The position numbers were made by a program, and so were the translations under genes. The notes under the pieces are model-generated. The model was not told the DNA's origin, did no database searches, and saw only the letters and a list, made by a program, of their open reading frames with translations. From Octopus vulgaris (lineage: Eukaryota), in assembly GCA_951406725.2 (NCBI GenBank), contig OX597826.1, positions 78,864,001-78,928,000 of the forward strand: a DNA stretch of 64,000 nucleotides. The letters run 5' to 3'. Shown piece by piece: positions 42,401 through 46,500 of this stretch. Every line of letters begins with the position of its first letter. Position 1 is the stretch's first letter.

Positions 42401-42496
42401 AGATCTTGTGAAGATATATTTCAGCATGGCATTTAAAACAGCTTTAAATCAAGAAAGAAAATAAAAAGAGAAAGTGTTAAAACCAAAAATGCTTAC

Positions 42497-42628
42497 GGCT
42501 CTTTCCACATAGGCGCTCATTAACTTCTTTAACGCTGTGTGCTTTCTGATTTTAAAATGAACTACACTACCATCCTGGCCAACCACTTTCAAATTGACAT
42601 GTTCACTGTCCATTTTTACCTCATCAAC
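42497..42628 (-). CDS. SUMO: SUMO coding exon 2 ([44 protein letters not shown])
   Basis: ctttccag|GTT acceptor and GCC|gtaagc donor; 132 bp, phase 0; clear SUMO2/3 similarity (INLKVAGQDGSVVQFKIK). Confidence 0.96.
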
Positions 42629-43174
42629 CTGGAAAGACAAAGAGAAAAACAAAAAAAAAACTGAGACTAAACTTTAACCAATAAAAGTCAATTTCATTAT
42701 ACACTTATTACTAAACTAACAAAAGATTTGCACCAATCTGCATTGCCAGCAATCGGATTGCCTACCGGTTTTTTTTTTTAGTAAACAAAGCCATTGGAAT
42801 ATGCCAAATGTGAAGACAGCTCAAAACATTCCAACTACTTAAGAGACGGCCTAAAACATGAAAAAGCTCTTTTAATTCATCACCATCTAGAAATAAAAAA
42901 AAAATTGTAATATCAAAGCTAAACAGTTTGGATGGAGAGAATGCAGTGCACTGTCACGAGACCAGGAGATATTGAAGATTCTTGACAATTTTTGTACAAA
43001 TAAAAGCAGAGAGAAAAAGCATCAAGAGAATCTCTCTTTATGACCAAAATATTTAAGAGATCAGATTTGAAAGAGGTTAAAAGGTTTTTGTAATGGGAAT
43101 ATATAAACTAGTTTCCTAACATGCAAGTTATATATATGTATGGGGTGACACCACTAAGCAGTGACGTGTATCAA

Positions 43175-43515
43175 TATAAACTGTTGCCAGTTCAAATGTG
43201 CTGGAGGCATATTCGAACCTGCAAAGGAAGCCCCATTCTTTGTATTTTGTCTTGGAGAAAATTTCCTGCTGTAGACAAGTAGGAGTATATACACTGAGTC
43301 AGCATCTACCTTTCTCATCTCTGTAGTTGAAGAGGAGATGACCATTGTGAAATGCAAGCATCCCAGCCTGGTGAGAGAACACTGCGAGCTGACTTGTGTG
43401 GTTACACCTATTTGTCGACAGGGAGAAATTTCCATCACGTCAAAAGACAGTGAATGGCTTTTCTTGGAGGTTCGAATATGCCTGAAGCATATTTTGAACT
43501 GGTAACAGGTTTGTA
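43175..43515 (+). repeat. Long imperfect inverted repeat (rod-like hairpin)
   Basis: Perfect 16-bp core aggcatattcgaacct (43205-43220) with aggttcgaatatgcct (43468-43483), plus collinear helices over ~145 nt per arm. Confidence 0.9.
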
Positions 43516-46500
43516 AAAGTTATTGTAGGCTGTCCCAGTCTTGGAGATGGTCCCTAAAATATTCCATAGTAATCTTTTTATTATTAGACATGCCATGTTC
43601 TATTCTTCTGGAACAGATTTCTATTACTTTATTGCACTGGGAGAGGGTAGGTGAGGGCAAAACAGGTTTAATGAATGAAAACCTCCAATGAACCGCAATC
43701 TTAATGATCCAAAGAAAACTGAATCAAATGAAGATAAAAACTAATACAATAAAACAATGCAAATACTACAACAGAAACAACAATATAGTAGAATGGTACC
43801 AGCCATATTATTCCTAAACAGTCATTTTGCAGATGTATTCCAAAGAGCCAAGAACCGATTTAGAAAAAAGATCTCCCAGTGCTCAATTTTATATTTACAA
43901 ATCTTCACATACCACAACAAATTTGAAAATCCTCGACCTACAGAATAAAGCAAGCCTTTATTTGTGCACACACTCCAACTACATAAAAAAATCTTCAGAC
44001 AGTAAACACAAGTTTCACTAATAGGTTATCAAAGCAAAGTACCCTAACAGTTGCCTGAAGTAAAAAATAGTGCTCTCATAATCATTATTAATGGCCCTTA
44101 ATATAGACAGAAGAGATAACCAAATACTAAAAACATCTACACCCCATGATAGAAACTTTGGTGATAGAGATCTATATATGCTTAACTACAAAAGAAATAA
44201 GATTTCTAATATTCCTACACCAAACATTGGACTTGCCAAAGCAAAGTTGCTAACAATACCAGTTATGTTAAGGAATTCAAATATTCTAAGCAAATTATAC
44301 CCCAAAATGATCAAGATCGAAGTAACACTTCAAATGGGACAGTTCTACATGTCCTCACTGGTGGCATTTCTACTTCGGCCCTACTTGATCACTGAAGTGG
44401 AACAAGCAGAGTTATGTACCTTGCACTTCAACTGGTACAATGGATTTTAGTGAAGTCTCAACTAATGACCTATGTATAGTAGTCAATCTAGAATTTGACC
44501 TAAAAGTCTGCTTACATGATTCTTTCGTGTGTATTAGCCAAAAAGTTCTGCAGTAGTACTGCTTACTGTGTTGGATTGGGAGGAGTTTTAAGCAATCAGT
44601 TTAAGTAATGGACTGAAATGAGAAACTGCTACAAAACTTGATAGAAATTTTTTTTTTAATTATGAATGGCTTAATTGACATTTCTGATGTCTTTAGCAAT
44701 ATTTCTGTTATTAACAAATACTGATGGATTATATAATCCAAATCGATCTTTTTTATATACGACAATCCAACAAAGCACCTTTTCTGCAAGACTAAAACTG
44801 GTGGAAACTATTTTATAAACCACTAAAGGGAACCTAATCAGAATGATATAAACCTTTGCCAACATTAAAAATCTACCAACTTAGTATTTACTCAATCCAC
44901 CTGGCCTGGATTAACACCACACATCGCCACCTGGCCTCCTTGGATGGAGTTCACTGTTGCAAGGATTCGGGTCAAGTGTCCAGTTTGAGGAGATCATCCT
45001 CCCTCTATCCTGATTAGGAAGATAAAAAAATCTAATACAGGTATTAGAAAAAATTAGACCCAATAAGTCAAAGATTTTGATAAAGATCAACCCTTAACAA
45101 TGGACCAGAGTGCGGAACCGACTGAAACAATGATTTATTAGCAAACCTAAAAGAAAATCCGAAATTAGCATCAAAGAAATCACAAAAAAAAAATTAATAC
45201 ACAATGGAACCAACAAAAACAGCATATTTGGACCAACACAACAGACGACGACGGCAAACTATTTAAATCCTATAAGATGTTTATAGAGTTTTAGGCGGGT
45301 TGAGGAGAGGAAGGGATTCCTAACAATATTAAGGGATCTGCTAACGGAAAGACAATATCAAAAATTTTTCATTCATACAAAAAAAAAAAAAAACCAAGCC
45401 CTACAAATTAACCATCAAATGAGAAATATGACCACCACCACCACCAGCAAAGCACTTTAGAAAACTCCTACAAGTTAGACCAATTGTCCAAATCAAAACC
45501 TATGACTGGGTAAGATGGAAATAAAATAGGAAAAAAGTCAATGTAGAGTTGGCCATCTAACAGATTTTACAAATGAAAGCTCAGGTATAATTTATCATGC
45601 AAACAATATATATGAGAAATTAGAAAATTTAATGAATGTAAAAATTATATTCATATTTGTACAGTTTCTAGAATATGCCTTAGCTAAATTCATAGTTTAA
45701 GCAGACTTTACAAAGCAAAAATAATTTTAAAATTAAAAAAACACTTTATTAAAAAAAAAATAACAAACATATACCAGAATGAAATATTCAAATCTGCTTT
45801 TGAACTTACAGCAATATATTACAGCATAAGGATTTTGGATGGACAGGGGAATTTCAGAAACGGAAATACTTGCTAATTCTTTAGGTAGGCCAAAGCGGGG
45901 TCACTGACAGCAACTCTAGATTCAACGAGAAAGTTACACAATATGGATTAGGGTAAAAATTCCAACTATATATTGGAAAAAATATATTTAAATGTAAAAA
46001 AAAAAAAAGACAAAAACACATATAATATATAAACACACGTACAACTAACCTCCTGAAAGTCAAATGATAAAATAAACCGGACCAAGACTTATTCTATCAC
46101 CACAAACAGGCAGAGAGAGACGAAAGGAAATCTAGTCTAGTGACAATTTCCAAAGATTTATTTCTCACTAGAATCAAATTTAGTCGATTTAATATCACAG
46201 AGACACAAATTGAATGTTAAATTAGATTAATAGATGTAGAGAACACAAGATTACATGATAATACTATACTAACTTTGATACCTATTAAATTTAGAATACT
46301 ATAAAAGTAGAACTGGTCACTTTACGTAGGATGGAATAAACACGGTGGTAATAAGTAATAGTTCAATATTAAATACAAGAAACGGCGCCAACTGTTGTTA
46401 CGATGTGGCAATGGACTGGAAAAAACCTCTGAAGAGAGTTGAAACGGTTTCGGTTCTTCCTTAAGAAATTTAAAAGTCTAAGACATCTCGATAAAAACAA

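Follow-up and report, generated by a model that had tools for sequence, protein, structure and literature searches.

The sequence analysed here (the window) is a 64,000-nucleotide stretch of Octopus vulgaris contig OX597826.1. It carries a SUMO gene on its minus strand, so the plus strand of the hairpin considered below is antisense to SUMO, just as the initial annotation had it. Spliced contigs link the SUMO coding exon downstream to about 37163 and upstream to 45810. The hairpin element lies in the upstream intron and ends about 510 nt upstream of its 3' splice site. A contig from organism D differs from the locus at only 7 of 1148 bases. In one run (X14) there is an in-frame stop in the upstream exon just before the junction (window 45810-45830, minus strand). 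The upstream exon is therefore untranslated in that isoform, and the start codon lies in the 42497-42628 exon. One contig of another run (X20) has a joint that skips 166 bases over the SUMO exon (42466-42633), with 21 letters on its short side. This skip is possibly a repeat artefact.

Table 1. Features of the SUMO intron hairpin and its surroundings (positions in the window)
Feature	Position	Strand	Basis
SUMO coding exon, downstream of host intron	42497..42628	-	Pfam Rad60-SLD, E 1.6e-6; spliced contigs
Host intron	42629..45809	-	X14 contig links 42628 to 45810; GT donor, AG acceptor
Inverted 5'-truncated repeat part (unit 185-344), left arm	43139..43302	-	BLAST 85% over 166 columns
34-bp terminal tail, left end only, bordering TA-rich run	43141..43174	-	Alignment to the tail scores 50 at this end
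Left strand of perfect 16-bp helix	43205..43220		Sequence; partner 43468-43483; holds candidate edited site 43212
Sense repeat part (unit 94-310), without tail at its end; ribozyme remnant and right arm	43300..43515	+	BLAST 83% over 219 columns
Decayed type I hammerhead motif	43321..43366	+	Alignment A1, core columns, pairwise alignment; C3 -> U, stem II broken, 2-nt stem I deletion
Candidate A-to-I site, A-C mismatch	43411..43411	-	T>C on plus, X1 only; unpaired, neighbours paired (P 0.90, 0.96); opposite 43279
Candidate A-to-I site, A-U pair in 16-bp helix	43477..43477	-	T>C on plus, X1 only; paired with 43211 (P 1.0)
Candidate A-to-I site, A-C mismatch	43490..43490	-	T>C on plus, X1 only; unpaired; opposite 43198

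The rod-like hairpin claimed for this intron is real. The plus strand folds to -168 kcal/mol (z -9.72) and the minus strand to -140.4 kcal/mol (z -7.83). Both are far below their shuffled controls, and for neither strand did any of 100 shuffles do as well. The perfect 16-bp helix is confirmed and can be placed at 43205-43220 and 43468-43483. Two homologous arms do exist, but their limits must be corrected to 43175-43305 and 43386-43515. When the first is aligned to the reverse complement of the second, 99 of 133 columns are Watson-Crick; transversions account for 14 columns and gaps for 5. What pairs further in is the long stem that the repeat itself forms around a hammerhead motif, and the catt/gtga/aatg "tip" described earlier is the broken ribozyme at 43321-43366. 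The outer helix said to form only on the plus strand is due to chance. It is the element's 34-bp tail pairing with unrelated flank, and 38% of 2968 random 40-mers from the window align to the tail as well as the right flank does. The window holds no second copy of the hairpin sequence, as was first reported.

The sequence belongs to a dispersed repeat family. A genome search with the hairpin sequence returned 989 first-look candidates, and all 40 of those that were scored match. An exact 23-mer of the repeat occurs 54 times in the genome while its reversed control occurs 0 times. Judging by these search counts, the family probably has hundreds to low thousands of copies. The oriented and aligned loci give a unit of 344 bp (GC 0.442) that continues head to tail; four rows were dropped, namely L022 (not oriented), L046 and L049 (duplicates) and L003 (overlaps L012). 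Sixteen fragments are longer than one unit, and 2 of these have two hammerheads. Among fragments of at least 100 columns the median divergence from the column majority is 15% (n=81, range 7-24%). The window copy has diverged at 21 of 160 positions in its left part and 33 of 214 in its right part (about 13% and 15%). As a circle the unit folds to -111.4 kcal/mol, against -83.5 +/- 5.0 kcal/mol in 60 shuffles. No description of a 344-bp hammerhead family was found in the portion of the Penelope, octopus and hammerhead literature that our search covered, and the family may already be catalogued in a repeat database such as Repbase or Dfam.

The majority unit contains a type I hammerhead motif. 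Its core consists of CUGA-N-GA and GAAA with a UC cleavage triplet end. Stem II is 4 bp, stem III is 3 bp with a palindromic tetraloop, and stem I is about 35 bp. Core positions (e.g. C3) are named by hammerhead numbering. The full descriptor matches once in the column-majority unit and in 0 of 3000 shuffles. In the alignment A1 of 57 copies, 13 of which were chosen by their core pattern, 85.6% of the stem cells are paired, compared to 27-60% in slid controls. Two of the 59 hammerhead regions (L044 and L048) are short and were left out of it. Double-sided stem changes number 29 versus 15.7 in shuffles, with 0 of 500 shuffles as high, though relatedness can inflate such counts. Stem I of the motif covaries across the family copies. 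The number of pairs with a double change is not above shuffles (234 of 500). The whole descriptor is intact in only 4 of the 57 aligned copies.

In 20 loci, in the intact-core copy L068 (1450-1600) and in the window at 43100-43560, Rfam matched neither a hammerhead nor any other family of relevance. Its miRNA matches were to simple repeats with scores below gathering and were rejected. A genome scan with RF00163 gave 6 matches among the 73 scored, none homologous to the 344-bp unit. This is a hammerhead repeat family that Rfam misses. In the window copy C3 has changed, stem II is broken and 2 nt are deleted, so its ribozyme is predicted to be dead.

The copies carry distinctive insertion marks. 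There are 20 head-to-head junctions in 19 of the 70 loci. Half of the inverted (left) parts (10 of 20) end at unit position 179-196, the site of an inverted repeat internal to the unit. The two parts of the window copy overlap by 3 nt at their junction. The 3' ends fall into two groups, counted in loci drawn by queries covering that end and so not an unbiased census. The commonest is at unit 301-320 (40 of 94 fragments), which is also where the window's sense part ends. The second is at unit 331-20 (30 of 94), about 34 bp further. This 34-bp tail is at one end only in 10 of the 13 hairpins with both ends classifiable, at both ends in 2 and at neither in 1; the remaining 7 of the 20 hairpins were not classifiable. 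Of the 51 3' ends compared, 13 border a microsatellite; in the 51 controls 4 do. We considered a decayed right-hand tail in the window copy, but rejected it since the tail alignment at the right flank scores -0.5, which is at chance level. In non-LTR retrozymes a target-site duplication, when there is one, exceeds 4 bp; none is visible at the window copy, which has a TA-rich run on its left. Hairpins made in a single step account for roughly one in four sampled loci and may feed repeat-directed editing of introns. One locus (L002, oriented 1497-1858 and 2126-2312) has two head-to-head copies about 270 bases apart with an identical junction, which is probably a local duplication. Another (L016:1457-1808) has 11 derived changes common to both arms where 2.0 are expected, which suggests a subfamily template or conversion between arms.

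Non-LTR retrozymes are defined in PMC7229834. The octopus repeat has a type I hammerhead, a tandem unit within 150-450 bp, GC under 50%, no ORF and a self-paired monomer. In these respects its 344-bp, 44% GC tandem is like the metazoan retrozymes covered there (Mytilus at 350-390 bp, axolotl Rtz331/353). Its short helix III closed by a palindromic tetraloop is like that of the axolotl HHR_Amex1 (PMC7229834). Penelope-like elements are described as having partial tandems, an adjacent inverted truncated copy arranged head-to-head and a 30-40-bp tail on one end (PMC8557442, PMC3846280). The octopus copies have the head-to-head inverted 5'-truncated part and a tail of that length at one end only. 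They also share with those elements the partial tandems, the hammerhead near the 3' end and the microsatellite flanks. The hammerhead, the tandem unit, the lack of an ORF and the Penelope marks together fit a non-LTR retrozyme (PMC7229834) of Penelope origin. We argue from the sequence that this is likely what the family is. The initial annotation had raised a retro-inserted structured RNA as a side option, and that option holds, because this is a hammerhead-bearing repeat with retroelement insertion marks.

There are differences from the retrozymes of PMC7229834 as well. The octopus copies are mostly dispersed, truncated to 1-2 units and about 15% diverged. They have frequent head-to-head inversions and a one-sided tail, and the word "inverted" appears 0 times in the main text of that paper. 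The octopus family is known here from sequence, and its cleavage and circular RNA are predictions. A recent preprint, concerned mainly with vertebrates, reads retrozymes as non-autonomous Penelope derivatives but leaves the movement of the non-LTR retrozymes open (bioRxiv 10.64898/2026.07.22.740005). The one-sided tail and the head-to-head junctions bear on that mode of movement. In the giant squid 235 Rfam hammerheads have been reported (PMC6962438).

It could be argued that the copies are instead pseudo-LTRs, left by 5' truncation of an autonomous Penelope-like element, and not an ORF-less retrozyme at all. The tail, the head-to-head inversion and the 5' truncation are all Penelope marks (PMC8557442), and the loci examined are 70 with flanks of only 1.5 kb. 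However, the sequence beyond the tail enters the next 344-bp unit and not an ORF. Across 71 oriented loci, taken with 1.5 kb of flank, the unit has no Penelope-type ORF next to it. The genome does contain RT plus GIY-YIG ORFs. The unit was found in 0 of the best 30 of 148 GIY-YIG loci, where there were only two chance matches of 25-27 nt, and in 0 of 29 other L028-like loci. Unlike Penelope-like elements, then, the octopus unit has no RT or GIY-YIG ORF in it or linked to it in the loci examined, as an autonomous element would. We consider this scenario unlikely. An upstream frame at L028 resembling Cys-Pro-Leu-Asn-Gly was tried as a partner and rejected, since it belongs to another repeat and 0 of 29 other loci have the unit. 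There is also a young RT plus GIY-YIG Penelope-like family (e.g. L081, L086) that makes up 16 of the 148 GIY-YIG matches, in 781-aa open frames, and is unlinked to the 344-bp unit.

The next line of evidence is transcription. Four runs (X1, X14, X19 and X20) were compared over 42440-44000, all as contigs, a form of data blind to strand and to small RNAs. No run is catalogued as RNA; we take X1 and X14 as such because their contigs are spliced. In X1 one 2319-nt contig spans 44000 to 42496 and then enters the next SUMO exon, and from this splicing we infer that it is SUMO sense-strand RNA. A long duplex in transcribed RNA, which is what ADAR acts on, is thus present: the minus strand folds well below its controls and a spliced SUMO contig runs across the hairpin. 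That contig has four substitutions, of which 43634 is common to all four runs. The other three are private to X1, are T>C on the plus strand (A>G on the sense strand) and all fall in the right arm. They are absent from the X19 and X20 locus contigs, and the contigs come from other individuals than the reference DNA. Among the 9 listed differences of the X19 and X20 locus contigs there are 0 T>C. X14 has no locus contig over 43317-43526, an absence of no evidential weight; where it does have one, it adds a fourth candidate. This is a T>C on the plus strand at 43212, in the left arm and the 16-bp helix. Contigs of other copies in X19 and X20 also have C at that position, near contig ends.

Two of the four candidate sites are at A-C mismatches and two are in the 16-bp helix. 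The probability that all 3 X1 changes would fall in the arms is 0.007. The probability that at least 2 would fall at A-C mismatches is 0.056, a marginal enrichment. With the three X1 changes the fold becomes more stable, going from -153.2 to -165.0. Reads from paralogues are an unlikely source for them, as 65 of 74, 86 of 94 and 95 of 101 family copies have T in the respective columns. The 5' neighbours of the four sites are A, U, U and A, and the 3' neighbour is U in all four. ADAR is described as preferring a 5' U or A and not G, with a 3' G favoured and U disfavoured in most species (PMC9989829), so the 3' U at every site is a point against editing. An ADAR substrate was among the options of the initial annotation, and it fares well in part. 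Sense-strand A>G changes do occur in an RNA contig, two of them at A-C mismatches, but the three sites come from one run and the 3' U is found throughout. We conclude that the SUMO transcript is probably A-to-I edited in the hairpin, on the basis of contig-versus-reference differences between unmatched individuals.

Inverted Alu pairs direct A-to-I editing of introns in primates. Ubiquitous editing in squid is reported to be mainly in introns and 3' UTRs that overlap repeats (PMC9068888), so editing of the SUMO intron would be ordinary. The octopus hairpin resembles repeat-directed intronic editing as described in PMC9068888 and PMC9989829 in its long, imperfect, repeat-derived duplex, its clustered sense-strand A>G changes and their 5' U or A. 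It differs from those cases and from Alu in that the duplex comes from one insertion and not from two neighbouring copies, and in the 3' U at 4 of 4 candidate sites. The part of the literature on retrozymes and ADAR that was covered has nothing beyond a cancer review.

Taking the copy number, unit structure, hammerhead motif, inverted part, one-sided tail, decay and the RNA-versus-DNA differences of one run as the observations, we argue for the following scenario and hold it to be probable. The hairpin is one old copy of the dispersed 344-bp repeat, inserted head-to-head in the SUMO intron. The repeat is likely a non-LTR retrozyme derived from Penelope, and the hairpin is likely edited by ADAR as a by-product. 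The hammerhead would cleave the transcripts of tandem units. Acting in trans, the reverse transcriptase and GIY-YIG nuclease of a Penelope element would then insert a copy of this RNA at a TA-rich site. The inverted left part would stem from priming or template switching within the inverted repeat that the unit itself contains (88-101 with 178-191), which means both arms would come from one event. Each arm would then decay independently by about 13-15%, killing the ribozyme. The arms of the SUMO pre-mRNA would form a duplex in which ADAR edits A-C mismatches, and we see no evidence of a selected function.

A bolder version of this scenario would treat a retrozyme with a Penelope tail and junction as direct structural evidence of Penelope mobilisation. 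It would have such insertions supply the genome with hundreds of one-step ADAR duplexes, and it would have the SUMO copy co-opted so that its editing tunes intron retention or splicing. In that full form we think it unlikely. One can also propose co-option by itself, with selection maintaining an edited duplex that controls splicing, intron retention or nuclear retention of SUMO. The X1 contig retains part of the intron although its downstream junction is spliced, and its majority path carries the change at three sites. The 16-bp helix is also intact, and the element lies near the acceptor (about 510 nt). However, contig depth cannot reveal a retained isoform. The arms have decayed like those of sister copies (13% and 15% against the median of 15%), with 14 transversions and 5 gaps between them. 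Over 123 columns the arms have 0 derived changes in common versus 2.0 expected by chance, so compensatory change is not seen. There is no sign of selection on pairing on either strand, and co-option is quite unlikely.

The initial annotation proposed a selected structured RNA antisense to SUMO, either a hairpin or an endo-siRNA precursor, based on a strand bias in G-U pairing. The count itself is correct. There are 12 G-U versus 3 A-C transition mismatches on the plus strand (nominal two-sided p = 0.035), which supersedes a pairwise count of 25:14 that ran into the unrelated right flank. The plus strand also folds better by 28 kcal/mol, and in the right part it reads in the repeat's sense orientation. 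However, the sister hairpins scatter both ways, from 10:4 to 2:12. Transition mismatches are present in 18 of the 20 junctions, and p<0.05 is reached in two: the window copy (12:3) and L007 (2:12). The other hairpin copies pooled, with the sense part on the right, give 96:133 (p 0.017), opposite to the window copy. When the window locus is polarised against the column majority, 19 of its changes create G-U and 15 create A-C (p 0.61), and a polarised bias with p<0.05 is found in 1 of 61 loci. Plus-strand A>G is absent in two RNA-like runs, and the outer plus-only helix is the chance pairing described above. The finding as first proposed does not stand since the sequence is multicopy, the bias scatters both ways, the polarised count is 19:15 and the arms have 0 changes in common. 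We regard a selected antisense RNA as highly improbable. A G-U strand bias seen in one decayed repeat says little about selection. We also considered, and rejected, an editing signature fixed in the sequence of the family. On the unit sense strand in non-CpG columns A>G is 5.3% versus 5.4% for T>C, and C>T is 12.3% versus 11.7% for G>A.

The initial annotation had also held that many genomic copies would point to an ordinary MITE; the many copies are there, but the family is not a MITE. A foldback DNA transposon, bounded by long terminal inverted repeats and a duplicated TA, would match the multiple copies, the inverted arms and the TA at both ends, but it is scarcely credible given that an adjacent inverted junction is missing from 51 of 70 loci, copies differ in junction and length, most copies are in one orientation, the ends are asymmetric by the 34-bp tail, and the family has direct tandems and a covarying hammerhead motif. 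The Tc1/mariner type would have symmetric TIRs, uniform length and a TA duplication, a combination that this family does not show.

Other repeats with hammerheads came up in the same searches. The six Rfam Hammerhead_1 matches unrelated to the 344-bp unit are L135-L140. Three of them have a common long stem II insert, which implies that there are further hammerhead repeat families in the genome. A second dispersed repeat (L105-L134, with the match at about 1500-1760, and the upstream part of L028) gave 464 candidates, of which 40 were scored. Several of its copies are close to contig ends. On its opposite strand there is, by eye, a candidate decayed type I hammerhead.
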